A program made the translations under genes and the position numbers. From a virus (taxonomy: Duplodnaviria; Caudoviricetes): 64,000 bases of DNA. A model generated the notes under the pieces. That model had not been told where the DNA came from. It ran no database searches and worked only from the letters and a program-made list of their open reading frames with translations. The DNA is taken from IMG/VR virus record IMGVR_UViG_3300021399_000143, positions 1 to 64,000 of that record, one strand, 5' to 3'. Below, piece by piece: positions 1,690 to 56,442 of this stretch. Every line of letters starts with the position of its first letter. Position 1 is the first letter of the stretch.

Positions 1690-3267
1690 TTACTTTCTGA
1701 GCACAGATGGGACTGGCGAGATTTCCCAAGCCTTTACAAGCTAAATGCGTTCGTGCATATTGGGAACACTATCTTTGGTAGTCCCGTTGATTGAAATAGC
1801 ATGTGTAACCTTAAATGACTGCCAGGGGCCAAAAAATTGGTTGTCCCCGTAGCGGTTGTCTTCAGTCTTCTCCTTCATCTTGTTTCCCACTTCATTGGTC
1901 GTGTCGCTTGGGGTGAGTTTCAATTTGTCAGTATCCAACACTTGCTTCTCCTTCATTTCCTCTGGTCTGCTAAGCAAATAGAAGCACTGATATGGTTGAT
2001 GCGAAACCTTGTTGCCCCTCGTTAAGATGAAGCTGTCTCTGTTTCCAATGCTTTGGATGCAATCGTTGTAGAGGTGGCGTTGGTTGTTCCACTTCGCTTC
2101 ATCCACAAGATACAACGTCTTGTCCTCCATCAAGAACTTCTGAAGGTCAGGTACAGATTCCTCTGATGTGATATCTGGATTCGGATAGAATGTGGAGTCC
2201 TTCTTGGGGCAGGAGTTCGGGGACTTGAATGTATTCTGAATCTTCTCGTTCATTATGATTCTGCGCACGAACTTGTCCTTCGTGATGTTCAAGTCCCAAT
2301 AGTGTCTGGTGTAGTAGTCCTTGATGAACCTGGTGTATGACATCTTGGAGAAGGACGTAAGAGTTGGAGTGACAACCTTCGCTTCGCCAGCACCTGGGGC
2401 GTATGGATTGACCTCCCCATCAGTAATCTCGTAGAACCTGTTGAGTTGGATGAAGTTGTGCTTTGCTCGGAGCATCGTGGATTCGTCGTTGAGCTTCGCC
2501 ATCCTGTACTTTCTTTCCTTCTCGTCCCATAGGATTATGCGTGGGTGGTTGTCCACGTCAAACGAACTCGGCTCCATGTACATCCTGTTGAGAAGATAGT
2601 TTATGGCAGTGAAGTAGTTGTCTTGCTGCGAAGTCGTGTAGTATATGCAGATGTCAGTCTTGCAAGGTGCTTCCTTGAAGGTCTTGGTGGCGACGTTCTC
2701 AAGTCCAACAGCATCAACCAAGAGTTTGGCTATGATTGTGGTGATTGGCTCTGGTTCCTTGAAGTTGTAGTTTGAATATTGGCAAACTGCTGAGAGCTTG
2801 TACCAAGACGCTGAGATAAGTTCAAGTCTATATGTGGTGACGTCAGAGTGCGTGTCGTGAGCTATTATCTCCATCTTGTTCACCAAGAAGACGTGGTTGA
2901 AGTAGTCCTCCTTCTTGATTGGCTTCTCCACCCAATATTCCCCATTTGGCTCACCATCTGGTCTCCTCTTGTACTTCTTCTCTGCAAGGTTCTCTGCCCA
3001 TTCAACCTTCACGAGAAGATGGGGGATTCTGAACAACTTGCCAAGGTTTCTTTCACTGTCCTTATATACCAACTGTCCAGTGAGAATAAGGGCGTTCCAT
3101 TGGTTTGTGTACTCGAACAACGCAACATTCGCTGGATTCAATATGATGTTCTTGTGCTTGATGTTGGTGGTGTCGTATACAGTAGCTTGGAAGCTCCAAC
3201 CTGTGCCGTCGATGACCCAATGACCTTGGGACAGCTCTGGATTCGGTGTTGTCTGCGCTTGTGCCAT
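1690..3267 (-). CDS. Putative baseplate hub protein (T4 gp27-like fold); 525 aa with TAG=Gln
   Basis: One in-frame TAG (1741-1743) then LVKAWEISPVPSVLRK-TAA; hub-like strand pattern; last gene of a late operon. Confidence 0.55.
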
Positions 3268-3282
3268 ATCCTCTTATCCTTA

Positions 3283-3780
3283 TCAAAGTTTCTTTATCAA
3301 GTCCTTTTCAGTGATGACCCTGAATGTCTTGCCCTTCGCTTGACAAATCTTCGCGGCCATCTTCCACTTCGCCATGTTGGTGACATATGTCCGTACGCTC
3401 TCGTTGTATTGGATTGTATTCCTGCCCTTCTTTGGTGGAACAGTCTCGCCAGAGTGCTTTATCTCCACCCAGACCTCATGGAGCAAAGGCCCGTTCCGTA
3501 CCCACATCACGAAATCCACGATGTAGTGGCGTTGCCTTTGCTGAACTGGGTCATAGTAGGGTATCGTGTTCATGGGATTCTCATAGTCCCACTTTATGAC
3601 ATCAGGGTTGTTGTCGAGATACCTTATGAACATGGCCTCCAACTTCGACTTGAACATGATGAACTTGGAGTGCTTCAGGTTCTTCTCAGGATGCGACAAG
3701 TAGTATTTGCCACGAAGGGCAGACTTGTACTTGCCCCTTGTAGCTTGCCCTGGATAGAGCCGTCTGTTCCTCATCGCCAT
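3283..3780 (-). CDS. Head completion nuclease (T4 gp4-like, TnsA-type)
   Basis: GKY...FKSKLE..F...LD.NP.V..W.YE...IPY..P......Y.VDF...VEIK motif series. Confidence 0.85.
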   Translation of the reverse strand: MAMRNRRLYPGQATRGKYKSALRGKYYLSHPEKNLKHSKFIMFKSKLEAMFIRYLDNNPDVIKWDYENPMNTIPYYDPVQQRQRHYIVDFVMWVRNGPLLHEVWVEIKHSGETVPPKKGRNTIQYNESVRTYVTNMAKWKMAAKICQAKGKTFRVITEKDLIKKL

Positions 3781-3783
3781 ATG

Positions 3784-6700
3784 TTATTTAGACCTCCTAC
3801 CATGTTCCAATATTTCGTCCTGAAACTTGTTGTAAATCCCAACCATAAGGTTGTCTATGACCTACTTTGTCAAACCAATGTCAGACTTGAAACTCCTTAC
3901 CTTCTGATCGTATTCGGATTGCTTCTCGTCCACATCCTTGCGCATCTTCTCCAACGTAGAGAAGTCCTCCAAGTGTTGCTACTTTGCTTTCTTGACCAAG
4001 GACTTGAGCTCGAATATCCTTTGCTCGTTGTTCAACTTGTCCATGAGCATTCTGTTTCGGACTTGCCTGTCAACACCCTTGACCTTCTTGCCGGACTTCA
4101 TGCAAATGTCGAAGATTCTCTTGTTCTTCTGCTTAAGCTCCTTTATCTTCTCTTCCATTTTCGCCACGTTGTCTATGATGCTCTGCAAGGACTTTCTTTG
4201 TCCATTCATCAATTCCATTGCAGAATCAAGGCTTTCCCTCTGCTCCTGAATCTCGTTCATCCACCTTTGTGAAACTTCTGGATTCTGCTTCGCAGAACTT
4301 AACGTTGCGAGACGTTCAATGTCAGATTCCGTATCTATCAATCCAAGTGACTTGAGGTAATTCACTGTCCTGCTGACCAATTGCTTGGAGTCCTCCTTGT
4401 ATTGCTTCTCCAACTTGACACACTCCTTGTAGGTTGCATCGGCTTTGACAACTTCCTCCATCAATCTGCGTCTGGCCAATTGGCGTTTGGTTGGAACAAT
4501 AGACCTCTCTTGCTCAGATTCATCTATGATGCCCTATGCCATAGCCAAGAGACGTATTCTTTCCCTGGCCTTGGCATCCACCTTGTCAATAGACCATTCT
4601 TCCTCACCCTCGTCCCTTACAGATTCTTGACCATACTTGTCTTCCCAATGCAAAGTCTTTCTGTCCTTGATGATGTCCTCAAGTTCAGAAATCCTCCTTT
4701 GGGTTCTGTCCAACTTCACAGAGAGCAATTGGGCATATTGGTTCTTTCTGAGGTTGTAGGAAACTTTGTTGCATCTCCTTCTGAACGCCATGAACTGCTC
4801 GTCAGTCATTCCCATGTCCTCTGGAGTGGCATTCCCGGCATTCGCCGCCCACCAATCGTGGAGAAGAATGACATCCCTCAATCCAGAAACAGATATGTCC
4901 TTGAAGTCGAAATCGCTCCTAAGATTGCAGTCCTTATCCCAAACCTGCGCTTGGGTGTCCTTGATTTTCTCCTCGAAATTGTGAAGAAGCCTCTTGACCT
5001 TTATTGTGGCATCCTCACACATCGTGAGCATCTTCTTGAACTGACTCAACTCGTACCCCATGTTGAAGGAATAGTTGCGCCACCTCTCACTTTGCACAAT
5101 CAACTTGTGCAACTTCCTCGTGTCAAGGGTTTCAAGCGCAGGGCGATTGTCGTCTGAATCCGATGTCGAACCATCTTCGGTTGTTTCTTCTCCATCAGAA
5201 CCATCTTCAGAAATCAGTTCTGACTCAGAAGATTCGGGTTGTTCGCCAGAGTCCTCTTGCATTTTCCTTCCATGATCCTCTGCCCACTTTTCAAGTTTCT
5301 TCTTTATTTCTGAAAGGCTGCTGTCAGTGACTTCACTCAATATCCTCGCCCTCGTCTCTTCTGGCATTTTCCATTTATTCGGGTCTCTGCTCTAAATCTC
5401 CTTGATTGTGTCATTGATTGCGTTCATCTCAAGCACGATTTCAGAAAGTCTTTCATCTATGGCGTTCAATGATTCCTCAATGCTCTTGTCAAGTTCAAGC
5501 TTCAACGAACCAATCTTCTGACCCAACGCCAACTTCTTGTCCAATTGGTTGTTTCTCAATCCATTGTACTCGTCCTGCAAATTGCGCAACAGTTCAAGCT
5601 TGCCATCCTTTACATCCCCAATCTGAATCTTCTTCGTGGTCAACTTGTCCCACTCTGCATATAGGTCGTAGAACTTCGTCACATAAGACATAAGTTCCTT
5701 GTTGTTGGCAAACTCATCCATCAACCTCTTCAACACCATAGTGAGCTTGGAGAAGCACTCTGCAGAATGAACTTCCTTGTGATGAACGTCTCGCTTCACT
5801 TGCTCCAAGCAAAGTTCCATCCCTTCAAGTCTGTTCTTGAATTGCAGATAGTGCCTGACAAGTTTGAGGTCGTAGTCTGGGATTCGCTGCCTGAATATGG
5901 AATAGTGCGAAGAAGTCGTGGAATGAACCATTGGAATGTCATCTACTGCAACTGGCGTCCATACTTCATCAGATTTCACCCTCTCCCTATAGAAATCATC
6001 CTCGCAAACGCAAATAATGGAATTGACTGACGACACCATGACTTCTGGTTCAGAAAGAATATGACCATCCTTGTCCATCTTCACCACCAGATACTTCCAA
6101 TTCCCCTCTGAACCACTCTAAATCTTCACCAAATACTCCCCAGTATGGTTCTTGTCCTTCTTTGGATCAACCAAGGCGAAGGTGGCTATTGCTGTTATGT
6201 CATACTTCTTGAGGAGACGCTTGTATTGCGCCCACTTGGTGTCATAATACGCCCTTGATGTTATCTACCTGAAGTCAGGATGCGTATTTGGAATCAACGC
6301 AATCTCAGCAGAGAAGTCATTGGCGTTGGTGAATGGAACATAGATTTCGTCAGAAGCAGAACCATTGTTGTCCATTACCTTCTTGAAGTAATCCAACAAG
6401 GTCTCAGATATCCTTATTCCTTGAAACTCCTTGACAACTGTACGTTTCCTCTTTGGAACATTGGTTTCATCCACTTCTGAATCTGCTTCAGCAATCTCAT
6501 CTTCAGATGGAGATTTCTTGGACTTCCCATACGTGATGTTGCTCCAATCAGGGTCAAGATTCACGAGATTGATTCTGAAGTTCCTGTTGAGCAAATACCT
6601 CTCATACTCCATTGGGGAATAGTTCTGATGTTCCTCGTACCTATATACGTTGTCGTTTGAAACTGAATCGTCATCCAACTTCACAAGGTCGAAGGCAACA

Positions 6701-6993
6701 GCATCCCGAACAGTAGGATGCAGGTAGTCAATATCGTATTTGTCGAAGAACGCCTTAAACTTATTCTTGCGCTCGACCTTTCGATTTCTTTCAAAGATTC
6801 CTCGTTTCTTGTTCTTCCACTCTTCATCCGTATCGTCAGGTTCTTTAGGTACTTCTTCCCAATATTCCTTTCTCGGAACATAACGCAACCTCCAGTTGTT
6901 TGAGAACAGGTTTATAAACTCCTTCACGAGACCACTGTGCCTATCACCAGGGAGAAGCTTGTCAAGATCTTTAACTTTGCATACGTAATTCAT
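3784..6993 (-). CDS. Large coiled-coil late protein, 1069 aa with TAG=Gln
   Basis: Four track ORFs plus a C-terminal piece joined in frame by TAGs at 6265, 6118, 5392, 4534, 3979 and 3862; ends TAA 3 nt before the gp4 ATG. Confidence 0.8.
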
Positions 6994-6994
6994 G

Positions 6995-8749
6995 TCATTC
7001 TTCCAACAAACAATGTTCAATCAAGGAATATGCATCACGCTTTCCATCGCAAACTTCCTTCACCAACTCCATGCGCTCCTCCATGAAGTCCTCATAGAAT
7101 GGATCTGTGGACTCGCCATAGACTTCATCCTCTATGCGCTTCACTCTCGCAGAAAGGTTGCCAGTTGCGGCCTCTGGGTTCTTTTGTGCTTGATCTGCAG
7201 TGATTGGAGCAAGCATTGGCGAATCTGGAGACAACCCAAACGGAGTGGAACTTCCACCACTTCCATTCTTTCCTCCAGATGAACCCCCATTTGCTCCGGA
7301 TTCCTTCCCTGCAGAAGAACCACCCGCCTTTCCAGAAGATGATGTACCAGTATCACCATCAGAATTCTCTAAATCACCAGTTTCCTTGTTGGTGTCTTCC
7401 TTCACTTCCTTCCACCCATCATTTGGATCTGCAAGCATAAACGCAACAGAAATCACATTGTTTGATTGCCCACCGGCAAACAACTTCTGCTTCAATCTTC
7501 CAAGAACTCCTCTGTTTCCCAAAGCCTTGTCAGCCATAGACTTGCCAAACCCATCATCTTTCTTCAACTTGTTGTCCGGTGGGACTTTCATTTCACCTTC
7601 GTATTTTTCCTTCTTCCTCGTCCAACCCAATAGGAAAGAAATGTAGTCCTTTGCAATCTTGTTCGTCATCTTCCATTGCAAGGAGTCCAATTTCTTCTTG
7701 TCTTGAGGAAGCATTTCATCCGCAGTATATTTATGACCACTCATACTTGTCTTCGCAGAATCAGGTGTTCCCATCCTTCCTACCGTCTTTATTCCCATTA
7801 TCATCTTGTTGAGAAACCCACTCTTGAACTTGCGCTTGTACCAATCGTCTGTAAAGCTTGTCTCTATGTCAATCCTATACGTTTGCCATGGATTCCATTC
7901 CTATCCACCAGCCAATTTGCTGTCAGAAATGGTCGCTTTCTTTTTTGCCTTGCTTCCAACATCCCCTATTCCACCCGCACTGTCAGTAACTCCACATTCC
8001 TGCTCCCAATCAACCCACGCATCTGACATACCCTTCAGATTGTCCTTGAACAGATTTTTCCAATCATGTTTCTTGTCCATCGTTTGGGCTATGTTCTTCC
8101 ACGCGGAAATGTTGTTCTTGTCAGATGCGCCTCCTGAAGGATTCAATGACGCAACCTGCTTCAGAACATTGTTCCAATCTGATTGGTTCTTGCTCTTGAA
8201 ATCCTTATCCTTTAATTTTTCCTCCATTCCCTTCTTCAATGCTTCCCAATTGGATTGGAAACTACTCCACGCCTTTCTGCTTGCTTCAACAACAAAGCCC
8301 TCCATATCCTCATCCCCATGTGGAATCTCCATCAATTTATTTACGGAACACTTAATCAAGCCTCCATTTCCTGTCATATCCCCCGACTCATTAACTCCAC
8401 TCTTGAACGAAGAACCAGTGGCAGTTGAGGCGCTTCCTGTACCTGTTCCAGTTCCATCATCCTCACCCGATGATCTATTTGCACTCTATCCTTTCAACTG
8501 AGCAGAAGAACCGCAAATCTCATCACCATACTTCTGCATGACTTGCGCCCATGCCCAATTGTGCTTCTATACAAGTTCATCCTCGTTGATGAAGAAAGTC
8601 TTTCCCAAATTGGTCAATCCAGCCAATTTCTTCTCCACCTTTATGGCTTTGCCATCGGCTTCAACATAAATGTCCTGAATCAGGTCGCCCTTCAAGACCG
8701 ATTCCAGTGTGGTACGCATAGTTATTGTACTGTCATTCTTAGCTTTCAT
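6995..8749 (-). CDS. Late (probably virion) protein with Gly/Ser-rich linkers, 584 aa with TAG=Gln
   Basis: Track ORFs joined by TAGs at 8567, 8486 and 7901; late motif upstream; TGA stop abuts next ATG. Confidence 0.8.
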
Positions 8750-8783: not shown

Positions 8784-8791
8784 TATTTACC
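8784..8791 (-). promoter_or_regulatory. Late promoter motif GGTAAATA
   Basis: 35 nt upstream of the 8749 start; variant of T4 TATAAATA. Confidence 0.7.
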
Positions 8792-8866
8792 ATTTTTCAA
8801 CACCAAAAGAAAAGGTCCGAACCGAAGTCCGAACCAAGTCTTTATAACATCTACTATTTGGAATCG

Positions 8867-9142
8867 TCAAACCATCTTCGACTCGTTGATGATGTACTGA
8901 ACGCCCTCTGGATCCTCCCAATACAACTGTTCGGATAGTTCAATTTCAACCCCCATTTCCTCTATGTCCTCTGGGGAATAGCCCTGCTCAGGAAGTTCCT
9001 CGTTGATGACATAATCAATCAAGGAATCGACATTGGTTGAAACTACAGTGGAAATGTCCTCAGCATCCCCGGATTGATTGGCGTTTATCACCAGAACATA
9101 TACATTCCTCATCGGTCTTTTCTTCTGAATAATTCTTTTCAT
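8867..9142 (-). CDS. Hypothetical protein
   Basis: ORF (start may be 9112); TGTAAATA motif at 9180-9187. Confidence 0.6.
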   Translation of the reverse strand: MKRIIQKKRPMRNVYVLVINANQSGDAEDISTVVSTNVDSLIDYVINEELPEQGYSPEDIEEMGVEIELSEQLYWEDPEGVQYIINESKMV

Positions 9143-9420
9143 AATTTTGTTGGTTGTTTACAATTGTCGTTGTTATCTCTATTTACAAGTTTAGACAGCA
9201 ATTCGACTATCGTCTGATTCTGCTTCATCTTGAACTCCTGCACATCCAATATGCACATGATCATCGTCAAAAGAAATCCACCTGATATGCCAAACACCAA
9301 TGTGAATAGCCAACTTGGAGCATGGCATACAACAAGGACAAATCCAATCGCCAGAAGCAAAAGGAAAAACCTCAAGTTCCTCGATGCCGCACTTCCTGGA
9401 ATAGACACATCACTTTTCAT
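9139..9420 (-). CDS. Small membrane protein
   Basis: Two hydrophobic segments; start MKSDV overlaps upstream stop. Confidence 0.55.
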   Translation of the reverse strand: MKSDVSIPGSAASRNLRFFLLLLAIGFVLVVCHAPSWLFTLVFGISGGFLLTMIMCILDVQEFKMKQNQTIVELLSKLVNRDNNDNCKQPTKL

Positions 9421-9979
9421 CTTCACCAACTTCCTTGCCATCAGAAATGTCTTTCCCAGACTTGATGTCGTCATCACATTCCTTGCAGATATATGTGATC
9501 CAACCCTTGGTTTCCACCTTGTTCTCCTTGTCCAAGGGAACGCCACATTCAGCACATGTATTGAATGTCAAGTCCTCCGCCTCGGATATATACTTGTCAG
9601 CAAGCATCTCAAGATAGTCCTTGGCAATGCAAAGTTGATTTTCCTTATCCTGAGGAAGTTCATCAGTCAAATCAGAAACAACGCCATCATTGTTCACATT
9701 CCTTATGGTAAAGTAGAATCTAAGAGTTCCAAACTTCTCCTTCACCTGATCAGCAACAATTGCCACACCATGATTCTTCGTGAACTCCATGTTGTGAAAT
9801 TCAAGCACCGTGCAAAGCTGCTCCAATATATGATACCATCCCCTGGGACATTCTATTCCCCAACACATGCAAGTTTCCCTCATGGACTTCTTACGCTGCT
9901 GAAACAGGATTGGGAATCGGGACATGAATCCCTCTCCATATTTTGCATCCTTTGGTATGCCATAGTATTTGTGGAACAT
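9410..9979 (-). CDS. Phage conserved hypothetical protein with Zn-ribbon
   Basis: QVKEKFGTLRFY motif plus CxxCG...GW....CxxC. Confidence 0.7.
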   Translation of the reverse strand: MFHKYYGIPKDAKYGEGFMSRFPILFQQRKKSMRETCMCWGIECPRGWYHILEQLCTVLEFHNMEFTKNHGVAIVADQVKEKFGTLRFYFTIRNVNNDGVVSDLTDELPQDKENQLCIAKDYLEMLADKYISEAEDLTFNTCAECGVPLDKENKVETKGWITYICKECDDDIKSGKDISDGKEVGEDEK

Positions 9980-9999
9980 ATTTGTATCTCCTTTGTCTA

Positions 10000-10028
10000 A
10001 TTATACCACAAACGCCCCTTTTGGTAAA
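10000..10028 (-). promoter_or_regulatory. sigma70-type promoter
   Basis: TTTACC-17-TATAAT with TGn. Confidence 0.7.
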
Positions 10029-10051
10029 GAGGCGTAAAAAGAAGGGTTCTT

Positions 10052-10142
10052 GTTGCTCATTCACCCAAATGCGAATTGGTAATCACAACACATACACAAC
10101 CATACGTCAACAAGGCTTGACGAGCAACTTTTCATGGGTGAA
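10052..10142. ncRNA. Candidate structured non-coding RNA (pseudoknot)
   Basis: GTTGCTC/GAGCAAC and TTCACCCA/TGGGTGAA interleaved stems plus CGTCAA/TTGACG hairpin in a 260-nt intergenic gap. Confidence 0.35.
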
Positions 10143-10263
10143 CCACTCCCAACCGAGTTTGGTGCATATCCCCTTTTGAGGGACAACTGTCAAGGAGAAC
10201 AACGATGAAACCTCTGAACAGCAACAACACATACTTTACACAACACCTTAATTATACGATTTT

Positions 10264-10626
10264 TCAGATTGATTTGAGGATATCCTGAATCTTCTCCCTC
10301 AATTCTCCGTCTTGAATCTCTTGGCACAACCTTGACACCTCAGCCAACTTCTTGAGGGTATCTGTCCTTCTCTCATACTCGTTCTTGAGGGATTTTCGCA
10401 TATTCTCATCAACCACACTTTGCTCTGTTGAGAGCTTGATTGAAGGATGCAACACGATTTGATTTTGCGTCCAATCGAACCCAATCTCAACTCTGTCAAT
10501 TGGAACTGTCGTATAGCACGTCAGTTGATTCTTGTCGTGCTTCCTCACGGTCAATTCAAGCGCATCTTCCCTCCCCTTTATTTGGGGATGAAGTTCGCAA
10601 AAGTTGAGAAAATCATTCAATGTCAT
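10264..10626 (-). CDS. Hypothetical protein
   Basis: 120 aa ORF with AAGGA RBS right after the tmRNA. Confidence 0.7.
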   Translation of the reverse strand: MTLNDFLNFCELHPQIKGREDALELTVRKHDKNQLTCYTTVPIDRVEIGFDWTQNQIVLHPSIKLSTEQSVVDENMRKSLKNEYERRTDTLKKLAEVSRLCQEIQDGELREKIQDILKSI

Positions 10627-10644
10627 TGTGTGTTATCCTTAAAA

Positions 10645-11015
10645 TGGTGGAGGTGCGGAGCTGCTGCCGCTCCGGTCTTGCTCAGGCTTGAACATTGCTT
10701 GGTCATGTGCTTATGCCCATCTTGGTTTCATCTGGTGCAGATAGGGCAATAACTCCCAGATGATTTTATGGAAATGGCTGCGAATGGACGTTCCCATGCT
10801 CCATTGCAGTTGCGTTGGTGGATTAAGCCAGACAAGGTACTCTCGCACAACCTCCCTTGCCCAACTGCTGTCTTACAGATTGATGTTTCTCAATCAAGCA
10901 GCGATGGCATAGTCAGCCTCAGTTTGCTTTGGTCGGATTTTAAGGAAGCCATCTGACCAACTTCCGCACACATAACAATATCCTTGCATCTGCCAATCGA
11001 TACTATTTCACCCCC
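10645..11015 (-). ncRNA. ssrA: tmRNA (one-piece, 371 nt)
   Basis: 5' GGGGGTGAAATAGTATCGAT; 3' GCACCTCCACCA; G3:U70 pair; PK1 GGAAG/CTTCC plus TTGGTC/GACCAA; tag frame ...EADYAIAA-TGA. Confidence 0.9.
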
Positions 11016-11025
11016 AGTTTGTAAA

Positions 11026-11367
11026 TCAACCTTTGTCATTGCAGCAGTCTTCCATAGCGTCAGTTCCAGGACAAACTCCTGTACCGTCGCAATAGGATAT
11101 GAACTCAATCTTTCCCAAAGACTGCCTTGAATCTTGCATCAACTTCTTCACGAAATCAACACTGTCGAGAGCTTCGCCCAAGAGAATGTCTTTGGATGTC
11201 CTTGACAATCCAATTGAACATCTGATGTCCCGAAGCATATCCCTCAACTTTATGATAATGTTCTCTACGTGATCGTATGTATATGGAGCATAACTTCTCG
11301 CTCCAATTGGCAAACTGCCCTGCGTTTCCTTGTCGTCCATGTTGTATGGTTCTCCTTTGGTTTCCAT
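11026..11367 (-). CDS. Hypothetical protein
   Basis: ORF ending 11 nt before the tmRNA; start METKGEP inferred. Confidence 0.5.
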   Translation of the reverse strand: METKGEPYNMDDKETQGSLPIGARSYAPYTYDHVENIIIKLRDMLRDIRCSIGLSRTSKDILLGEALDSVDFVKKLMQDSRQSLGKIEFISYCDGTGVCPGTDAMEDCCNDKG

Positions 11368-11384
11368 ACAACAATTATACATAA

Positions 11385-11585
11385 TCACGTAAGAAGAATG
11401 GCGTTTGTCTCTGGCGTAACGGATGAAACCTGCGTGACGATATTTCCACAAATCCCATGACCAAACTCGCAAAGTGTGGCGTCACTGACTTCAGAATACT
11501 CCTCATAGTCTCTGGAGGTGTCAAGAACAACCTTCCAATCGTCAGGAAATCGTGAAAGCAATCTCTTAAGCTCGGCTACTGTCAT
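11385..11585 (-). CDS. Hypothetical protein
   Basis: MTVAELKRLLSRFPDD phage-type N-terminus; ATGA overlap. Confidence 0.65.
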   Translation of the reverse strand: MTVAELKRLLSRFPDDWKVVLDTSRDYEEYSEVSDATLCEFGHGICGNIVTQVSSVTPETNAILLT

Positions 11586-11797
11586 TTGGATTCCTCGTCG
11601 TCTCGGCAAAGGACATCATAGACATTCTGCATCTGTGGATTGTCCGGGAATGTGCCACCAAACTGCCCAAAATAGTAGGTCATCCTATTCTTGGCTTCCT
11701 TGATGGTTGCCTTGAGTTTGTTGATTTCATCCATCAACTTCCTATGTTCACAAAGTTCCATTCCACGGAACCAACAATCCTTGCAATCGCACGTCAT
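11582..11797 (-). CDS. Small Cys-rich hypothetical protein
   Basis: 71 aa ORF, CxCxxC. Confidence 0.6.
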   Translation of the reverse strand: MTCDCKDCWFRGMELCEHRKLMDEINKLKATIKEAKNRMTYYFGQFGGTFPDNPQMQNVYDVLCRDDEESK

Positions 11798-11800
11798 ATA

Positions 11801-12088
11801 TCAAATCCTGTTGAACGTCCTTATCGCAATCCTTTGATTGTGCTTGTCCAACAATTCCCTGCCTTTTTCTGGGAGATCGTTGTATATGTTCTCCACAAGC
11901 ACATCTATCAAGGTATCGGGGTCGAAATTGCCCTTGAGGGTCAATATTCTGCTGCCCTCTATGCTATAATCTGGCAAGTCGGCGCCAAAGTTCACGAACC
12001 AATTGCCGGTGAGATTGATGCTGTTCCCCGTTTGATAGTCCAATCCACCTAGGTAGATGCCATTAGTTTCGTTGTTTGTCGTTTCCAT
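11801..12088 (-). CDS. Hypothetical protein
   Basis: AAAGGAG RBS before METTNN. Confidence 0.65.
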   Translation of the reverse strand: METTNNETNGIYLGGLDYQTGNSINLTGNWFVNFGADLPDYSIEGSRILTLKGNFDPDTLIDVLVENIYNDLPEKGRELLDKHNQRIAIRTFNRI

Positions 12089-12105
12089 GTTGTATATCTC
12101 CTTTG

Positions 12106-12348
12106 TTACACGTATTGTTCCAAAAGACACTTGACCTTCGCCATCATTTCCCTACCCTTTCGGTCAGCACGCCATCGTTCCTTGCATTCGCCACGAATGA
12201 CAAACGACATGTCCTTGAATATCAACCCCGAGGTAAAGATGTCAATGGACAGTCCATTGAAGTTGCAGAATGCGCGAAGATTGGATTCAATTGAACCAAT
12301 AATCCAAAAAGGCGCAGAAACTATGTTTGTTATCTTGTATGTGTACAT
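12106..12348 (-). CDS. Hypothetical protein
   Basis: 80 aa ORF below a TATAAT at 12364-12369. Confidence 0.55.
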   Translation of the reverse strand: MYTYKITNIVSAPFWIIGSIESNLRAFCNFNGLSIDIFTSGLIFKDMSFVIRGECKERWRADRKGREMMAKVKCLLEQYV

Positions 12349-12386
12349 TGGCGTGTATCCTATATATTATACAACTTTGTTGAATG

Positions 12387-12680
12387 TCAGTAAACTATCT
12401 CGTATTCCTCCTGCAAATCTGATATGTTGTCAAATACCTTCAAATCCCCATTCTCGTCATTCACCATAGCATATTGTCCAATTCGTATTTCACCAAGCCC
12501 CTCAATATACACTACGCCGGATCTCTCGTCTATGCCCCAATTCTCGCAAGGGATGTTCGCCATCACCATGAACCGCTCTATCTCGTCAAGATTGTCTATG
12601 ACGTGTATTGCTGGGGCAAGGCAACGACCCTTGACCTCCAAGGCATATTGTGTTGGAGTTCTCTTCTTTACTGTCATCAT
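12387..12680 (-). CDS. Hypothetical protein
   Basis: 97 aa ORF, TGA stop. Confidence 0.65.
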   Translation of the reverse strand: MMTVKKRTPTQYALEVKGRCLAPAIHVIDNLDEIERFMVMANIPCENWGIDERSGVVYIEGLGEIRIGQYAMVNDENGDLKVFDNISDLQEEYEIVY

Positions 12681-12695
12681 TGGCTATTATCCTTG

Positions 12696-12986: not shown

Positions 12987-12987
12987 G

Positions 12988-13248: not shown

Positions 13249-13250
13249 AA

Positions 13251-13718: not shown

Positions 13719-13719
13719 A

Positions 13720-37846: not shown

Positions 37847-37848
37847 GT

Positions 37849-44686: not shown

Positions 44687-44694
44687 TGTAAATA
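44687..44694 (+). promoter_or_regulatory. Late promoter motif TGTAAATA (second copy AGTAAATA at 44631-44638)
   Basis: Upstream of tail tube gene, divergent from 44604-44611. Confidence 0.65.
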
Positions 44695-44745
44695 AGTAAC
44701 GAAAGAACAACCCAGGCTAAAACAGCTTAACGAGGTACAAAAGAC

Positions 44746-45483: not shown

Positions 45484-45514
45484 TTCTGACATTGGTCTTG
45501 CATGAGACGACAAT

Positions 45515-45550
45515 GGGGGGATGGGGACAAGTCATGAACCCCATCTCCCC
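45515..45550 (+). terminator. Strong hairpin after tail tube gene (terminator or stabiliser; no U-tract)
   Basis: GGGGGGATGGGG...CCCCATCTCCCC. Confidence 0.5.
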
Positions 45551-45574
45551 AAAGCATTGATAGGGAGATGATTG

Positions 45575-46831
45575 ATGGGCGTAAGTCTATACACATTGAG
45601 AGACAGGGGAGCCGAGAAGGACTATCCAAGTTGGGTGGATGGTGCGCCAAACCTTCAGACATATCTTACTGCCATAAACAAGTCCCAGCCCATAATCCAA
45701 TGCCAATACGAAATTGTATGGAGTCGTTGGCCGAGGGCGAAGTTCTTCTCCAAGAACATCACGATCCCAGGAGTGTCTGTCAATACGCTTGAACTCAACC
45801 ACGCTGGATTCACAATCAAGATACCAACCCACGTCACCTACGAAACGACAGACATATCCTTCAACATCATAGCCGACAAAGAAGGTTTCCACTACTACGA
45901 TCTTCGGAACATGGTTCTTCAAACTGGCCATCCATTGGTGGCAGGAGACCCAAAATCCACCATAGGCAACCAATATGGAATCAGCACAGACGAGGACACA
46001 ATTGAAGTCAGATTGAGGAACAGACCCAGCGATGGAACACACCACCATTGGATATTCCACAACTTCAAGCCAACTGGCATAGGAGACGTTGAGTTGAGCC
46101 AGGACAGTGGCTCTTTCGTGGAGTTTGAGTTGAAGGGGACTTTCACCCACATCTCCTACGATTGCGGAAAGGTGTTGCCACCAGAAGAACCACCTGCTCC
46201 AGCTCCACAGGATGTTCCACCAGAAGAACAACCACCTCCAGAAGATGAAGAGGAAGAGAATGATGGGGAAATGCCACCAGACGAGCCAGAAGAACTAAAT
46301 GAGCCAGAGGACTTGAGACCACCTCCTGAACCAGAACCACCACCTGAACCAAAAACGACATTTACAGCAATAATGTCTGGTTCGGATAATCTTGAATCCG
46401 ACGATGATTCTGAATCATAGACGAGTTCATGTTCTGAAGTTAAAATGCAAGATCCAGTTTCTGAACAAGATGTCGAAGCAGCAAAGCAATGCAATAGTGA
46501 ACTTACAGAAGCAAGTGATGAACTGCAACAAGAATTGGATAGAATCAAATAGATGCCCGCTGATCCAAACTATGAACCGGAGCATGTATAGGATGAACTT
46601 TACAACAGTGTTCATACGCCAAACGCAAACCAGCAAGATGTTCCTGAAGGAAGCAGTGAAGAATATAAAGGGGATAAAGTAACGGCATCGTTCGATACTG
46701 ATGTCACTATAAAGTCTCCAGAGTAGAAGGCTGCATATGATGCCGCAGTCGCCAAATACAACCAAAAGACACAAGCATCAATGAACAAGTACAAAAATGC
46801 CAGACAATAGAACCAGCAAAGTGGGAAATAA
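45575..46831 (+). CDS. Second tail-tube-fold protein with Pro/acidic C-terminal extension, 418 aa with TAG=Gln
   Basis: KNITIPGVS...TYETTDISF..IAD...F.PTGIGDVELS..SGSFVEF; five TAGs (46418, 46550, 46589, 46724, 46808), then TAA. Confidence 0.75.
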
Positions 46832-46843
46832 CGGAGCATTGCC

Positions 46844-47155
46844 ATGAACAAAGACGAAGAAAGAAAAAGCGACATCAAGAGGATGAAACTTCTTGCCAAG
46901 GCTATACGTTTCAACCATGAAAAGACTGGGAAACTCAATGTCATGGTCGATCCAGACTACGAGATTGAGAACTACCAAACTGGCATGACCCAACTCACCC
47001 TTCCCCATAGATTTGGCATGTACAAGACCCCAACCAAGGATGTTCCAAAGACAACTGAGATTGAACTTGAAGATCCATAGGACAACTTCATTGATTCGAC
47101 ATCCTCAAGGTTGGCAAAGAACCCCAACCACAAGGTCAGGGGCATATTCGGTTGA
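46844..47155 (+). CDS. Hypothetical protein, 103 aa with TAG=Gln
   Basis: TAG 47078 read-through to TGA 47153. Confidence 0.55.
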
Positions 47156-47180: not shown

Positions 47181-47269
47181 TAAGGCATAGGCGTGTAAAG
47201 GGCGTATTTACCATAACTTCAGCCAAAGGACATGGTGAAACTCCCAATAGCACAAAGGAAACATAAACC

Positions 47270-47920
47270 ATGCCAAGAAGGAAAAGCGAATCACTGGAGG
47301 AATTCCAGAAGAAGAACCTGGAGAAATCCAGATTGAGACAAAAATAGAGAGCAGAGTAGGAGAAGCTCCATCCACGCCCCAAGCGCAAGCCATTCGTAAA
47401 CAACTCTGACTTGTTGAACGAATTGAAGAAGTGGCGGGATTCCAGCAAAGACCCCGATAAGAGACAGCCAAGCGAGTATCTTGGGAAGATGATATTGGAC
47501 ATCGCCACGCATTACATGGGACACCCAGACTACGTGCGATACTCCAAGGAAATCAAGGAGGACATCATAGGGCAGTCTTGCATCAGATGCATCAACGCAT
47601 TGCCAAGATACAACTTCAGCTTCACAAATCCATTTGCGTACTTCACAACAATCTGTTGGTCGTGCGCAATGACATACTTGAAGGACTACTACAAGGACTT
47701 GAACTTCAAGCGACAATTGGTGAAGGAGAACTTGGAACGTGCGATAGATGAACTTCCATCAATAAACATAGACAAGTCCTACATGAACTTCCTGAAGACG
47801 ATGATTGGCTCAGAGCAAATCACGGAGGCGGACGCCAAGTTCCTCAAGAGGCAGAAAGATTCAATCATCTCTGAGATAAGAAGCGAGAAAGCCAACAAGG
47901 ATAGAGACTACGATGTCTGA
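47270..47920 (+). CDS. Late-transcription sigma factor (T4 gp55-like), 216 aa with TAG=Gln
   Basis: FVNNSDLL..L..W, YLGKMIL.IA, Y...IKEDII, NPFAYFTTIC; TAGs at codons 26 and 30 precede the conserved core. Confidence 0.9.
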
Positions 47921-49423: not shown

Positions 49424-51064
49424 TTATCCTATCAGCTTGAAATGAACTTCCCATTTTGATGATCCATAAAATAAATCATCCGAATTGCTTAACCTATATT
49501 CTCCACCGCAGGCTATTGTCTTTGATGGAATTCCAGGCTACTGACCATAAGTCTACCATTTATATTGATATTCAAGACCAGTATTGGGGTTTCTCTATTT
49601 CAAGTTCATGCTTGATATTTGAGGAAGATATACTGGATGGTCAATAAAGCCACCTCGATTCAAGAATCTAAATGCGCTATATTCGTCATTATTATAAACG
49701 TTTATTCCATCTCGCCAAAAATGTTTGAGAAGTGGACTGTTCCCTGGATTGTTTGGATCGATTCTTTGGAATTGATCTGAATACGACATAACCAACAAAT
49801 CATCTTTGAATGCCATATTGCTATCACCATCAATAAACTCTGTTGGAACTTCCAATGCTATTCTGCACATTGATTCATGTGGAGCACCTACATGGAAATC
49901 AGATGGCACTGTCCAAGCTACTCCACCACCTTCAGAATATGTAATGCTCTCAGAACTTCCGCGAGTGATTGTGTTGACCTTATTCAACCACGGTGCTGTT
50001 CCTTCATTTTTTACAGCTTTTATGTCTGTTGATTTAGTGCTAAGACCCCCATATAATCCCCATGTGAAATTGACACCATAATAATAAGACAATTGCCTCA
50101 ACCAATTTGTTATTGTTGCGCAGAATTTTTTTCTGCCACTATCATCTTTTGTATAACCATAATCCTTATCTGGGAAATCCAATGGAAATGTCTTCCTGTC
50201 ATTGTTCTATGACACACACTTGGCAAACCAAGAACTATACCATATTCCCTTATTCTTTCCAGTTGGCTTATTTGGATCTGACAAATATTCCACAAAGTTG
50301 AGCGTATCTTTGGTAAATATGCTTTCATCAGTAAGGAGAACAAATGTAGCCGCAGTAATGTCGCAATTTTTTCCCGGGGAAGTATGACCCTATCCATAGA
50401 ACATACGTTGTATGATATCGGCAATGGAATAGTATAGATTCGTAATCATAGATTCTGAAGATGTGTTCTTTTTTATCTTATCTATGAATGGAGAAACTGT
50501 ATTCCATATTTCAGTAAGAGATGCCTACCCAAAATGAATAGTGCCAAATACAGAGTCTGCAACGGACATGCTTGAAAGATTTGCCGCCGAGAATACATAC
50601 ATCTTGGAATCAGCAGTCTTTTTGTCAACCATAATGCAATTATAATCGTATATCTCACTGGTGATTGCCTTTTTCGCTTCGGTATAATCACCTTCTTTTT
50701 CTTTCATCGTACCTGACGTGTCCAATACATATATAGTGGCAAAATCAGGAACTATTTTGTCCCTCCAAATTTGCCAATAGAACGTCTAATCCCCCTATAC
50801 CATAAACCAATTCCCTAACTCCCCCTTTGACACATACTTTGGCTCAACACTCCAATTGTCTTCAGTGGTTTCCCTGATGGAAAATGCATAATCTGTACGA
50901 CCATAAACATTGTTTATGTAATTCTTCACGTCCTATGGAAATACTGCCCAACAATAAAGTCTATTCTTGCTTTGGCATGAATAAACAGGAGAATTGTTCT
51001 CCAGAACAACAAATGTCAAGGTCTTGTCTTCAAGTCCGTGTGGGTTCAATCCATGTGGTATCAT
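49424..51064 (-). CDS. AT-rich late protein (candidate receptor-binding/tail protein), 546 aa with TAG=Gln
   Basis: Nine in-frame TAGs (50933, 50795, 50786, 50525, 50390, 50207, 49595, 49553, 49538); open to TAA 49424. Confidence 0.7.
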
Positions 51065-51082
51065 TGTTGTTCTCCATGTAAA

Positions 51083-52183
51083 TCAATATACATAAGCAAG
51101 ACTATATGTCAATGCTCTTATTTTCTATGATCCTAAATCATACATATCGGCACGAAATACATACACATTGGTCTTCCTCGGCTCAACATACATTTGATCA
51201 GTCAATGGTACAATAGATTCAAACCAATCAAAGTCTGAGCCAACACCCACTACAGGGGAATTAACATCAAGAGATGTACTACTAGTATTTTTTAAATGGA
51301 ATTCCCATTCCACAACAGGGGCAGTTGCCTCATTCATCTATACATATTTCTCATCAATGACAAACCTTGGTGTGATTTCTCCCCCACTTTGATGATGTCT
51401 AAATACAAACTATCTCCCATTTATGGGACCACCACTTGGAAGATATGCACTATATCCATTTGTCGGAAGCTTGTTGAAATCCTGGTTTATATCTACTGTA
51501 CCACCAGACTTCATGCAAATATCCTTGAATTCATTGAGTTTGACTCCATTGAAATTAATCGTCAAATTATAATGTGGAAGCTCAACATCCAAACTTTCCT
51601 TATTGCCAGGAAGATTATATCCAAGAAGAGTTGCATCACGCAATGTATGGAATGTGAGTTTGGATTCGACTCCACCACCCTTGACAGTAAGATTGAGCAA
51701 TCTTCCGAAATTGTCGAATACATAGTTATGGGCATTGTTTCCATCCCAAGGATTGATTATTTTGTATGCAACCTGTTTGTCTCCACAATCCTTGAATGTA
51801 ACCTGCCAGGTGGCTTTTGTTGCCACTTGACTTGCTATTTTGTCAATCAACTCCAAAATTGAACGAAAATCTTCTGTTATGTTGTCTGTGTTGCCCTTGA
51901 AATAACCCTGCCAAGTAGTTATTTCATCAGTAGATGGAATAAAAGCTTGTAGGGAGGTAAGATCTGCATTTTCGGGTTGTTTAATGAGGGTAAATCTCGT
52001 CAATCCGGAACCACCTTGCCAAGCTGAGCATACTGTCTTTTGACAATGCCTATGAAAAGGAATCTCAACTTCTGTTGGTTCAGAACCTTCTCCAGACCTC
52101 ATAGAAACGTCCGTTGGCGCAGACAACTTGCGCACGACAGGATTTCCATTGTCCATATATCCATCTGTAATAGTTATAGCCAT
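51083..52183 (-). CDS. AT-rich late protein (candidate tail fibre/adhesin), 366 aa with TAG=Gln
   Basis: TAGs 51410, 51338, 51125; TGA 51083; late motif at 52213-52220. Confidence 0.7.
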
Positions 52184-52212
52184 GACTTTCCTCTATATAG
52201 TTTGTCTATTGC

Positions 52213-52243
52213 TATTTACCATTCCATCATTAAGTTGTATAAT
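52213..52243. promoter_or_regulatory. Overlapping divergent promoters: late GGTAAATA (-) and sigma70 TTTACC-17-TATAAT (+)
   Basis: The same bases form the -35 hexamer and the late motif. Confidence 0.65.
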
Positions 52244-52872: not shown

Positions 52873-53403
52873 ATGAAGAAACTCATTATCACACTGTTTG
52901 CTTCCATTGGCATTATGTTCAGTGGTTGCACACCAAGCGAAGAAACGCTCGTGATGGCTGCCCAGACCGCAGGATCAATTGGCTTGCTCACCTGGTTCAG
53001 CATTGACGATCCTGACCCGGACGTAAAGGCAACGCTCAAGGAAGTCATCACCTACGTCGATGGAGCTGCGGTGAAGGTTGAGAAGGGTGAAACATACCTT
53101 GACAGCCTTCTTCCCTACATCCAGAAGTTCGTAGGAGAGCAGGAGAAGCTCACCGACTATCAGAAGCAGCTCATCAATGCTGGTTCCGTGGTTGTGTTGA
53201 ATGGAATCGACACGTTCATGGCCGCAAATCCAAAGGTGAAGGAGAATGCTGACCTTGTCAACAAAGTGGTTGGCGCGTTCTGCAAGGGTGCGCTTTCGGT
53301 TCTCAACATGCCTGAGGATTGCGATGAGTGCAAGAGGGCGAAGGAAGTCTATCAGATGCGCAACATGAAGTGCAGAGGTGGAAAGTTCGTCCCTGCGAAG
53401 TGA
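52873..53403 (+). CDS. Lipoprotein
   Basis: MKK plus hydrophobic core plus lipobox FSG-C. Confidence 0.75.
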   Translation: MKKLIITLFASIGIMFSGCTPSEETLVMAAQTAGSIGLLTWFSIDDPDPDVKATLKEVITYVDGAAVKVEKGETYLDSLLPYIQKFVGEQEKLTDYQKQLINAGSVVVLNGIDTFMAANPKVKENADLVNKVVGAFCKGALSVLNMPEDCDECKRAKEVYQMRNMKCRGGKFVPAK

Positions 53404-53526
53404 AGAGACACATAGCCAAACAAGGCTAATGGAACGATGGGTGGCCGAAAGGTCATCCATCGTTAGCTTTTGCTTCCAACCAAAGAATGGTAAATACTCA
53501 CAACGGACAAGCAATAGGAAATTACC

Positions 53527-56442
53527 TTGGCAAATACAACCATATATGACAGTGGAGACACTTTGATCAACCGTGGATTGTCAATGCGCACAATCAACAA
53601 CGAATTGACAAATCTGTTCCAGAGATATTCCATGACCCTCAACAAGATTATGGGGGACGAGTTGATAGGGAACTCCCAAATACGCCAATTCTATACTGAC
53701 GAAGATGGGGTGTTCAAGGAATATTCCAAGGGTCAGATAGCGTTCAAGAACGACATAGACAATCTCAGATATCTACTCGACCACAAGACAACTGTATCCA
53801 ATCTCATTGGTGTTGATGTCCAAACCATAAACAATGACAAACGAGAACTTGCGAAGGTAAAGGACTATCTGAACAGATTGAAAAGTGTTTGTGAGTTGGG
53901 AAACGTCCATGACCCAATTCAACTGTACATATCCAAGCACGACAACAACATTGGCAGTCTTGACCTGAACGTTGATTGGGTTGATTACATTCTAACATAG
54001 AAATGGATAGACAAGCTCGCAACCAAGGCCAATGGAGGAGAATATTCCCCATCCGACTACAGAATCGAATATTTGTCGGACTTGATTGAAGGAATCCTCA
54101 CTGACCATATAATAGACTACCACAAGAAACTGGAGGCGTTCGACCCATCTGACTTCTTGAGCCAACCGAAGATGCCAATCAAGAATCCTGAAACAGGGAA
54201 AACCGTTGTGATTGACCTTCCATTGGAGGATGCAATGAACCAATTGAACTCATTTGGGAAGCTTGACTATGGGTTCTATGAGATATTCAAGCCAATTGGT
54301 GGTGGCAAGGGGAAGCACATCAAGGTCAAGATGTCCACGGATGGATATGTTGACATATCTGGCGTGGTTGGATTGTCGGATTGCGACCGCTGGGAATGGG
54401 AATATGGCTCGGAGGCATATCTGCGCTCCTTGAACACAGGAAACCAAAGATACTTGCTCCAACTGGACATGCCATTGAACGATGGCAGCAGCGTTCTTTG
54501 GTGGAGGCCAGACAGTCCATAGAAGTTGAATCCCCAACCAGGTGATGAAGACCAAGCAACGATTAGAAACTTCAAGGACTACGAGGTTGAACGTTTCTTG
54601 CGTTGGTATGGAAACGATCACATTCCAAGGATTGACGAGGACACCTTGGAGAAATGCACAGTATGCTCATCCCCAAACCTCACTGACGATACTGAATCAG
54701 ACAACTTCCACACTGACGCCAGAAACATAGGCGAAGCGAGATTGGACTTGACCAGAATCAACATAGACGAGTCAACGTCACAATCGTTGCTCTATCTCTA
54801 TCCAAAGGCGACAATCTCGGTAAGAACCTATTACCATGACGAAGAGAACAAGACATATAGATTCCCAAAGACAGTGGCGAAAGAGGGTGAAGTATTGGAT
54901 GACCCAAGCAAGATACACCAATACCTTGAATTCATCGTCACAGGGAACAGACAAACAAGCAACGTGGCGTTTGACGTGAAGGGATGGATTGGAACAGACA
55001 TACAAGAGAAGAACCACTACTTGCACACGTTGGGTCAAATGACAGAAGAGATGGAAAGACTCTTCAACTACATGTTGTTCTTTGAGGTAAGCGAAGTCAT
55101 CGTTCCTGGAATCACGACCATTTGGGACAACTTGAACTCCCACTTCTGGGAAAAAGCAGTTGATGCAAAGGTAAAAATCAACGAAGATTGGATTCCAAGA
55201 AACTGGATTTACTTGGAGGACAAGCTTCAAGAACTTCTCAAATCCCCAACCATAATAGACATCTTGCGATTCAGACAATTGGACTTTGACACCATAATCC
55301 TCAACAACGTTTCTCAATTGAACATCAGAAGAGATTGCTTCTTGAAGAAACTCGATGCGGACAGCGATGCATTCATTGACGAATATTGCCAAGGGGACAG
55401 AAATGACTTGAACGATATGAAAGCCCTTGTGAACAACAAAATGGTATACATAGAGGATTTGTGGAATTACATAACCAACTATAAGGACAAACCATATGAG
55501 GAGCTTTCAGAATACTATCAAGGAATAACCCAACTTACTGATGTGCAAAAGGCAAATCTCATAACTGCCCCACTCGAAAAGATGTATGGAAAGAAGTTGC
55601 CAACGTCAGAATATCAAGCAACTCGAATGAAGTTCTCTTCTGATGGAGAATGGATTACATACAACATAGACGGAACATTGGACAAGAAGACCCTTGAGAA
55701 TCTTGAATTGGTATACAAACCTAAAGAAGAGGGAGAAACAGAACAAACAAGGGACTATCTGTTGTGGATGCGAAAGCCATATGCCATTGAGATTGGAACT
55801 GATGTCACGGAAATTGGGGATTATGTGTTTGCCAAATGCACATCTTTGGTCAGTGTGACGATACCAAAATCCATTGAAAGCATTGGCAAGGAAATATTCA
55901 GGGAATGTCCCAATCTTTCAAGCATAACTTTCAGTGGCAGGAATTTCGCAAACATAAGGGATATCAAGGATGCAAATGAAGAAAAACAGTATCCTTGGGG
56001 ACTTGATTTCAATAAAGATGATGAAGATGAAGATGAAAATGACGACTATAAATACATCTTCAACAAGGGGGAGTTCTCTGATGTCAGAGTGGAAACCTTG
56101 CGTGAAAGGATAACCACTTTCAACAACCTAATCGTAAGGCTCCCTGTTGGTCCAAGACAACACAACTGCATAGCGTCCAAGCGCATATTCCAGGATTGGA
56201 AAGCGTTTGTGGATGGAGCAAAGAAACACTTGATTGAAAATCAGGAATTGTTTGAGGGAAATGATGTTTCGGAATTGGGTACAGACGGGAAGGAACACAA
56301 ATACAAGGAACTTTACATAGACGAAGCCAAGACGATCCCATTGATTGACTATTCATATATCACAAGAGACGAATAGAGTGGAATTCCAAGTGCCGATAGA
56401 TGGGATTATTGGACAGAAGAGGACTTCAAGTGGCCTCAATGA
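53527..56442 (+). CDS. 971-aa late protein with BspA-type LRR domain (TAG=Gln)
   Basis: Three track ORFs joined by TAGs 53998, 54520, 56374; IGTDVTEIGDYVFAKCTSLVSVTIPKSIESIG repeats; late motif at 53489-53496. Confidence 0.75.

Follow-up and report, generated by a model that had tools for sequence, protein, structure and literature searches.

The DNA analysed here is the first 64 kb (the window) of a 75,742-bp viral contig with a G+C content of 45% (IMG/VR record IMGVR_UViG_3300021399_000143). It very probably comes from a genome that is written in two codes: genes behind sigma70-type promoters use the standard code, and most genes behind a second element, the late box AAT(G/T)GTAAATA, use TAG for ~13% of their glutamine (Gln) codons; the decoder is likely to be a phage tRNA(CUA), and production of the late sigma factor would itself be gated by TAG. 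An initial annotation, made from the sequence alone, had proposed that early genes are readable in the host code and that late genes are recoded, and the promoter classes separated the genes in just this way.

The window is a piece of a ~420-kb T4-like myovirus (megaphage) of ruminant gut bacteria. The contig is classed as linear in IMG/VR, and its completeness was estimated at 18% by CheckV. Its large terminase (TerL) is ~31% identical to gp17 of T4-like phages; further recognisable T4-like genes are those for a gp25 baseplate wedge, a gp19-like tail tube, a gp46/SbcC-like protein, an RNase H-like exonuclease, a Dda-like helicase and a gp55-like sigma factor. The phage (G000) was compared with three complete close relatives with direct terminal repeats (G001, 414,060 bp; G002, 433,895 bp; G003, 418,068 bp), and the contig is collinear with G001 from 16 to 106 kb at 65-88% nucleotide identity. 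A separate ENA contig of 422,011 bp (ERZ12302813 NODE_3_length_422011) was 100% identical over the 6,079 nt compared and is therefore the same phage. Sequencing runs that contain the sequence carry the metagenome labels gut, bovine gut, sheep gut and rumen. Most of the large late proteins matched no Pfam or PHROG family, and no usable neighbour came from the ESM Atlas.

Gene calling with TAG as a sense codon gave 93 genes and 92.9% coding sequence on the contig; with table 11, as had been proposed for comparison, 124 genes and 86.2% were obtained. In G001, coding density rose from 84.6% to 89.0% under code 15 and was lower with TGA or TAA as sense. Genes, too, became longer with TAG as the sense codon and in no other code. 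Downstream of the stop of table 11 open reading frames, the frame stayed open for a median of 44 codons after TAG and for 6-7 codons after TGA or TAA. The window contains 61 in-frame TAGs, spread over 19 called genes: 55 in 15 late-box genes, two in the gp55-like gene and four that are stop-like (61478-61480, two near the end of gene 36880-37086, and one in gene 36704-36910). The 57 others were taken as sense codons and the four as real or back-up stops; the initial annotation had counted about 58, with the right coordinates. It had also held that interruptions are only ever TAG, and no gene required read-through of TAA or TGA or a frameshift. The TAG-joined genes end 1-18 nt before the next start, in agreement with the 1-20 nt given earlier. 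Protein domains that had been described as regained by joining were found in part: the caspase domain (PF00656, residues 40-272) spans the TAG at codon 204, and the searches recovered both the domain of gp25 and a tube match of gp19 type; none of the Pfam and PHROG searches returned a tail collar domain.

On the evidence of alignments, TAG is Gln, which gave the best fit to the TerL homologues, to 80 orthologue columns and to direct exchanges of TAG for CAR. In TerL, the residue at the TAG columns 121, 261 and 262 is Gln in 80, 54 and 50 members, respectively, of a set of 99 distant homologues. Opposite 80 TAG columns in G000/G001 orthologue pairs, Gln was found 25 times, Glu 13, Asp six and Thr six times; when these columns were scored against each residue's own substitution profile within the same genes, Gln was the maximum-likelihood residue, 43 log units ahead of Glu. 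TAG and Gln replace each other directly in the tail tube (TAG at codon 21, Gln in G001), in gene 1690-3267 (TAG at codon 509, Gln in the orthologue, with a conserved C-terminal tail), in the gp55-like gene and in gene 31124-33514, the codon 30 TAG of which is also TAG in G001 and Gln in more distant homologues predicted as one protein. In G002 and G003, a small sample of TAGs likewise stood mostly opposite Gln. The columns thus aligned to a residue in homologues, on which the initial annotation had made its proposal depend.

Gene classes were assigned from the promoter motif upstream of each operon, and TAG was not used. The intergenic DNA shows two kinds of element, sigma70 promoters and the AAT(G/T)GTAAATA box. 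Several of the sigma70-type promoters are perfect 12/12 or 11/12 matches in gene orientation; in the TAG-free blocks, 34 and 19 consensus promoters in gene orientation were counted, compared with 20.3 ± 5.1 and 10.9 ± 3.7 in shuffled sequences. The motif WKGTAAATA has 15 matches in the window (1.13 ± 1.06 in shuffles), a 13-fold over-representation. On the contig, 20 of the 23 matches to GTAAATA are intergenic (21 by overlap count), with intergenic sequence making up 7% of the DNA, and nearly all of these boxes face a gene start 7-110 nt away, often at 30-36 nt. The box is read as a gp55-dependent late promoter because a gp55 homologue is present and because it resembles TATAAATA, the late promoter of T4. 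The T4 sequence TATAAATA itself occurs once on the contig, inside a gene, and is effectively absent as a late signal. A division of the host-type promoters into early (full -35 and -10) and middle (extended -10 only) was not robust; many extended -10 promoters have weak -35 boxes, and the two were therefore merged.

Two further features of the late boxes were noted. In G001 the TAG rate was 4.46 per 1000 in AATGGTAAATA genes and 2.03 per 1000 in AATTGTAAATA genes (p = 0.025). Three boxes in the window end only 7-10 nt before an ATG (33514-33529, 44597-44612 and 21488-21508), which leaves no room for a ribosome-binding site and suggests that the late mRNAs starting at 33514, 44597 and 21506 are leaderless.

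The two classes differ strongly in their use of TAG. In the window, the 23 late-box genes (10,638 codons) contain 55 TAGs, equal to 5.2 per 1000 codons and 13% of Gln codons; the 59 sigma70-class genes (9,179 codons) contain two sense TAGs, where the frequency in late-box genes would predict 47 (Poisson P = 3e-18). Counted as TAG versus CAA/CAG, the odds ratio between the classes is 21 (Fisher, p = 5e-11). Late genes are also the richer ones genome-wide in G001, a comparison that the initial annotation had named as able to refute its proposal, with 3.58 TAGs per 1000 codons in the late-box class and 0.41 and 0.90 in two sigma70-type classes, and with TAG in 59 of 121 late-box and 24 of 264 sigma70-type genes (Fisher, p = 2e-17). 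Whether a gene bears TAG is conserved between G000 and G001 orthologues (2 × 2 table 15, 4; 2, 44; p = 2e-9). The blocks 8867-21181 and 33536-41362 and the genes for RNase H (rnh), the Dda-like helicase and the DNA methyltransferase have no internal sense TAG and have sigma70-type promoters in gene orientation, as had been described. Among the TAG-bearing genes, the recognised functions comprise the tail tube, the baseplate, TerL and a caspase-like protein; the analysis identified no lysis gene.

The initial annotation had called the recoding restricted to the late programme. The enrichment in the window and in G001 bears this out, and the word proved too strong in three respects: the gp55-like gene carries two TAGs, eight of the 23 late-box genes carry none, and three sigma70-class genes end on TAG. 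TAG is still a stop in these three, with back-up stops close by; in the window, sigma70-class genes end on TGA (40), TAA (16) and TAG (3), and late-box genes on TGA (15), TAA (8) and TAG (0). Downstream of the TAG of the gp46-like gene (61478-61480), G000 has AAGGAG and the start (ATG) of the following gene, with a back-up TGA ten codons on. The gene ends in 'IVRD' and TAG in both G000 and G001, and this TAG is most likely its true stop.

The exception in the sigma70 class that carries sense TAGs is the gene of the presumed late regulator:

47270-47920 (+): gp55-like late sigma factor, TAGs at codons 26 and 30, sigma70-type -10 element upstream

Homology to gp55 was found with phrog_234 (7.7e-22) and with the T4 gp55 chain 7d7c_F (2e-6); residues 37-172 align to residues 6-145 of T4 gp55, and both TAGs lie upstream of the aligned part. 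The corresponding TAG codons are 24 and 26 in G001, 24 in G002 and 25 in G003, so that the gene has one to three TAGs across the genomes and always one within codons 24-30 (four of four). The N-terminal extension is conserved around the TAGs, and Gln and TAG exchange within it. With table 11, the sole downstream start listed is TTG 47411, inside the conserved core. Since this gene combines a sigma70-type promoter with TAGs, late transcription would wait for the suppressor. A published link between recoding and a late sigma factor was searched for in the available literature and none was found. As a separate observation, an antisense late box, TGGTAAATA, lies at 47205-47213 (-) in the 5' leader of the gp55-like gene, ~25-30 nt past the -10 element, and is kept in all four genomes; it could provide negative feedback by antisense transcription across the gp55 promoter, or serve a minus-strand gene.

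A search for a UAG decoder in the rest of the genome had been proposed in the initial annotation. A tRNA(CUA) is present in all three complete relatives, at one syntenic site outside the tRNA array. In G001 and G002 it escapes both ARAGORN at default settings and the Rfam tRNA model. In G003, a weak Infernal match outside the array (268611-268687, 33 bits) is a cloverleaf with the anticodon CUA. In the G001 tRNA (297902-297980), the acceptor stem is 7 bp long and the T loop 8 nt, with G73 and an encoded CCA; the G002 tRNA (410487-410576) has a long (class-II) variable arm and an encoded CCA. The minimum-free-energy structure of all three is a cloverleaf. All three lie downstream of a TTT(T/C)GTATAATTGA-type (sigma70) promoter, and no late box is found upstream of any of them; the tRNA can therefore be made before late transcription starts. 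The tRNA arrays of the relatives hold 28-34 tRNAs and a standard tmRNA, and none of the array tRNAs has a CUA anticodon. An RF-1 domain or a GlnRS/GluRS catalytic domain, the other decoding functions considered, was found in none of G000-G003. The U1-A72 pair and G73 of the G001 tRNA are features that we take to be tRNA-Gln-like identity elements, and the tRNA would be charged by the Gln pathway of the host. A phage tRNA(CUA) is the most probable decoder, and we infer that the missing 82% of the G000 genome carries one.

The locus itself looks like a site of cassette exchange: a related contig in run X3 has 124 other letters in place of the 120-nt tRNA segment. The next gene after the tRNA in G001 codes for a PTH2 peptidyl-tRNA hydrolase, and this adjacency is absent in G002 and G003. 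Contigs of four runs compared at the G001 tRNA locus contained a PTH2 homologue, but the tRNA of G000 was not recovered from them. On the contig, an ARAGORN call of 'Pyl(cta)' at 41804-41901 overlaps coding sequence and was rejected as not credible.

A sequence of events is suggested by this arrangement. Host RNA polymerase would transcribe the standard-code genes, the tRNA(CUA) and the gp55 mRNA; the suppressor would accumulate until gp55 could be completed; gp55 would redirect the polymerase to the GTAAATA boxes; and the TAG-bearing virion and packaging genes would then be translated. With TAG at ~13% of Gln codons, most late-box genes give full-length protein only if UAG is decoded. At the TAG stops of early genes, read-through would add short tails, terminated by the nearby back-up stops. 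The stronger form of the proposal sets the code switch upstream of the transcriptional switch, with the tRNA(CUA) first, the TAG-interrupted late sigma factor next and then the GTAAATA promoters, so that the code change acts as the timer of a sigma cascade and the tRNA is an exchangeable cassette; we put this forward tentatively, at somewhat less than even chances.

Several findings count against the two-code reading. The classes are blurred because some GTAAATA boxes, read on the other strand, form the TTTACC -35 element of a sigma70-type promoter that points the opposite way. Only four of ~46 aligned TAG sites are common to G000 and G001, and at most sites the pattern resembles neutral turnover of Gln codons more than switches set in place. 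In the window, eight of the 23 late-box genes lack TAG (12.7 TAGs expected, P = 3e-6), and the box alone is therefore no predictor of TAG. The G001 orthologues of these genes are likewise free of TAG, but that of gene 3283-3780 has two; transcription of several of the genes could also come by read-through from a sigma70-type promoter, or from an overlapping TATAAT. About 18 internal TAGs occur in G001 genes classed as sigma70-type. No tRNA(CUA), RF-1-domain protein or GlnRS was found on the 75.7-kb contig, which represents 18% of the genome; for the tRNA, ARAGORN was run with default settings, with introns and at thresholds of 90, 80 and 70%, together with Rfam. Finally, the bodies of the three tRNA(CUA) are unrelated, with the 8-nt T loop in one and the long variable arm in another.

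Some of these findings favour other explanations. TAG may simply drift into genes that are expressed when a suppressor is already present and be purged from genes needed earlier, the partition then being a by-product without regulatory role. The fast turnover of sites fits this, as four of ~46 shared sites compare with ~2 expected if TAG were merely another Gln codon; so do the share of TAG among Gln codons of late-box genes, just 9-13%, and the many late-box genes without any TAG. Such passive tolerance accounts less readily for the late sigma gene, which keeps at least one TAG in codons 24-30 in four of four genomes although the exact codon shifts, for the codon 30 TAG of gene 31124-33514, kept in G000 and G001, or for the conserved absence of TAG from part of the late-box genes. 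We regard it as the more improbable account, with a real though minor chance of being right.

Two explanations that leave no place for a phage suppressor fare worse. Insertion of Gln at UAG by near-cognate tRNA is known in RF1-deficient E. coli, and UAG might likewise be read here by a near-cognate tRNA-Gln after the phage had disabled host release factor 1. The contig lacks a tRNA(CUA), default tools miss that of G001 and G002, and the relatives encode tRNA-Gln with the anticodons UUG and CUG, all of which would suit this mechanism; yet CUA cloverleaves with 7-bp acceptor stems stand at the same locus in all three relatives, two of them with an encoded CCA, and the mechanism is very unlikely. 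The idea that the TAGs reflect damage or a programmed truncation, whether as pseudogenes, errors of assembly or intentionally short products, is already contradicted by the evidence and has hardly any probability left. Its sole support is that table 11 reads the codons as stops, whereas TAG is the only interrupter, the frame is coding beyond each TAG, and domains and orthologue alignments cross the TAGs. An assembly artefact is refuted by the identical, independently assembled ENA contig and by the same recoding in the three complete relatives, the pattern being common to four genomes. The reading in two codes with a phage tRNA(CUA) is accordingly preferred.

Both the phenomenon and the model are already known from the work of Borges et al.; what is new here is the lineage. 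TAG-recoded (code 15) gut phages, among them crAss-like, Lak, Garnet, Agate and other phages, have recoded codons biased to structural, late and lysis genes (bioRxiv 10.1101/2021.08.26.457843). The present phage shares with them TAG as Gln, standard-code early genes beside recoded late genes, and the model of an early suppressor tRNA that licenses late translation. It differs in being T4-like, ~420 kb in size, of 45% GC and from ruminant guts, in having no RF2 or aminoacyl-tRNA synthetase, in a partition directly apparent from two classes of promoter, and in the TAGs of its late sigma factor; the word 'sigma' is absent from bioRxiv 10.1101/2021.08.26.457843. In the TGA-recoded Jade phages of the same study, a suppressor tRNA, TrpRS and RF1 are in standard code, upstream of lysis genes. 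The decoder gene of G001-G003 similarly belongs to the part of the genome that is in standard code and behind host-type promoters; unlike that of the Jade phages, it is a lone tRNA(CUA) without synthetase or release factor, with a PTH2 neighbour in G001 only.

In crAss-like phages, as described in the work on Mgcod (bioRxiv 10.1101/2022.06.29.495998), standard-code blocks likewise alternate with amber-reassigned blocks in one genome; the blocks here are short operons, interleaved on both strands, with borders that follow promoter motifs. From T4 late transcription (gp55 sigma; structures 7d7c and 7d7d), the phage retains a gp55 homologue and a single-element, A/T-rich box that precedes many late starts by 30-36 nt; it departs from T4 in the box, AAT(G/T)GTAAATA rather than TATAAATA, and in the 30-codon N-terminal extension with TAGs of its gp55 gene. 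Rumen jumbo phages with alternative codes have already been counted (PMC13037316); the gain in coding density here, 4-7 points, is under the 10% cut-off of that survey.

Recoding as a timer of the life cycle has so far been a hypothesis from gene annotations. This lineage maps the two codes onto two readable promoter classes and has its master late regulator written in the second code, by which the hypothesis becomes a short testable chain from tRNA(CUA) to gp55 to the late box; what merits a test is the gate at the sigma factor, together with the non-canonical, exchangeable suppressor. Two blind spots were encountered as well: default tRNA finders miss the suppressors, and a 10% coding-density cut-off would miss the lineage and leave its late genes fragmented in databases.

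The late-box genes and operons of the window are as follows:

1690-8749 (-): late operon, box 8784-8792
6995-8749 (-): late gene, 3 TAGs, operon of box 8784-8792
3784-6993 (-): late gene, 6 TAGs, same operon
3283-3780 (-): head-completion-like gene, 0 TAGs (2 in the G001 orthologue), same operon
1690-3267 (-): late gene, 1 TAG (codon 509), same operon
14338-15111 (-): TAG-free late-box gene within a sigma70 block
21488-23009 (+): late box 21488-21496, 10 nt before ATG, and two TAG-free genes (21506-22573 and 22560-23009) with TAG-free orthologues
23019-30511 (-): late operon, box 30503-30511
28232-30439 (-): late gene, 9 TAGs, operon of box 30503-30511
27730-28218 (-): gp25-like baseplate wedge, 1 TAG, same operon
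23019-27728 (-): late gene, 1,569 aa, 7 TAGs, same operon
31124-33529 (-): late gene of 796 aa, TAG at codon 30; box 33521-33529 ends 7 nt before ATG 33514, mRNA probably leaderless
41883-42784 (-): caspase-like gene (Peptidase_C14), TAG at codon 204, box 42776-42784
43776-44612 (-): late gene, 4 TAGs; box 44604-44612 ends 7 nt before ATG
44686-47155 (+): tail-tube operon, box 44686-44694
44746-45483 (+): gp19-like tail tube, 1 TAG (codon 21), box 44686-44694
45575-46831 (+): gene of the tail-tube operon, 5 TAGs
46844-47155 (+): gene of the tail-tube operon, 1 TAG
49424-52221 (-): late operon, box 52213-52221
51083-52183 (-): late gene, 3 TAGs, operon of box 52213-52221
49424-51064 (-): late gene, 9 TAGs (9 of 18 Gln codons), same operon
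53488-56442 (+): late box and BspA-type leucine-rich-repeat protein (gene 53527-56442), 971 aa, 3 TAGs
58976-61150 (+): acidic, low-complexity protein of 692 aa, TAG-free here and in G001, boxes 58976-58984 and 59030-59038

Gene 49424-51064 has no BLAST orthologue in G001 and probably codes for a fast-evolving tail fibre or receptor-binding protein. Gene 31124-33514 was considered as the major capsid protein and rejected; its 77 relatives among 1.84 billion representatives are far below expectation. With 59072-61150 and contig gene 70866-72089 as tblastn queries, phage records yielded no match. BspA-type leucine-rich-repeat proteins are present in several copies (53527-56442 in the window; 1-162 and 65018-65755 on the contig), with TAGs in the large copy and none in the small ones.

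The sigma70-class features, and the only tRNA on the contig, are:

849-926 (-): tRNA-Arg(TCT), not a suppressor
8867-21181 (-): TAG-free block with sigma70-type promoters
15167-15991 (-): PD-(D/E)XK exonuclease, within block 8867-21181
19607-21181 (-): N6 DNA methyltransferase, no TAG, within block 8867-21181
33536-41362 (-): second sigma70-type block, no sense TAG
36704-36910 (-): small gene ending on TAG, two codons before TGA
36880-37086 (-): small gene ending on TAG; its first TAG (36919-36921) precedes the next ATG by 8 nt
42850-43779 (+): T4 RNase H-like 5'-3' exonuclease (rnh), no TAG, sigma70-type promoter
56446-58945 (-): sigma70-class genes without TAG, including the Dda-like helicase (57680-58945)
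61448-63373 (-): gp46/SbcC-like gene, sigma70-type promoter, TAG at 61478-61480

The first sigma70 block contains long non-coding gaps of 284-399 nt (9092-9409, 9980-10263 and 10627-11025); neither ARAGORN nor Rfam, even at E <= 1, showed a tmRNA at 10645-11015. In G001, 13 of 38 TAGs of sigma70-class genes fall within the first 35 codons, several of them at codons 4-7, compared with 23 of 203 in late-box genes; these early TAGs of sigma70-class genes reflect either mis-called starts or N-terminal amber gates. The TerL match in the relatives L002, L003 and L007 covers 2,445-2,634 nt for ~660 residues, compared with 1,989 nt here, and its length points to a putative intron or intein insertion. 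Intron-containing tRNA genes (Asp, Gly and Ser) were found in the arrays of relatives (L043, 14591-14805; L044, 11348-11524 and 13253-13456).

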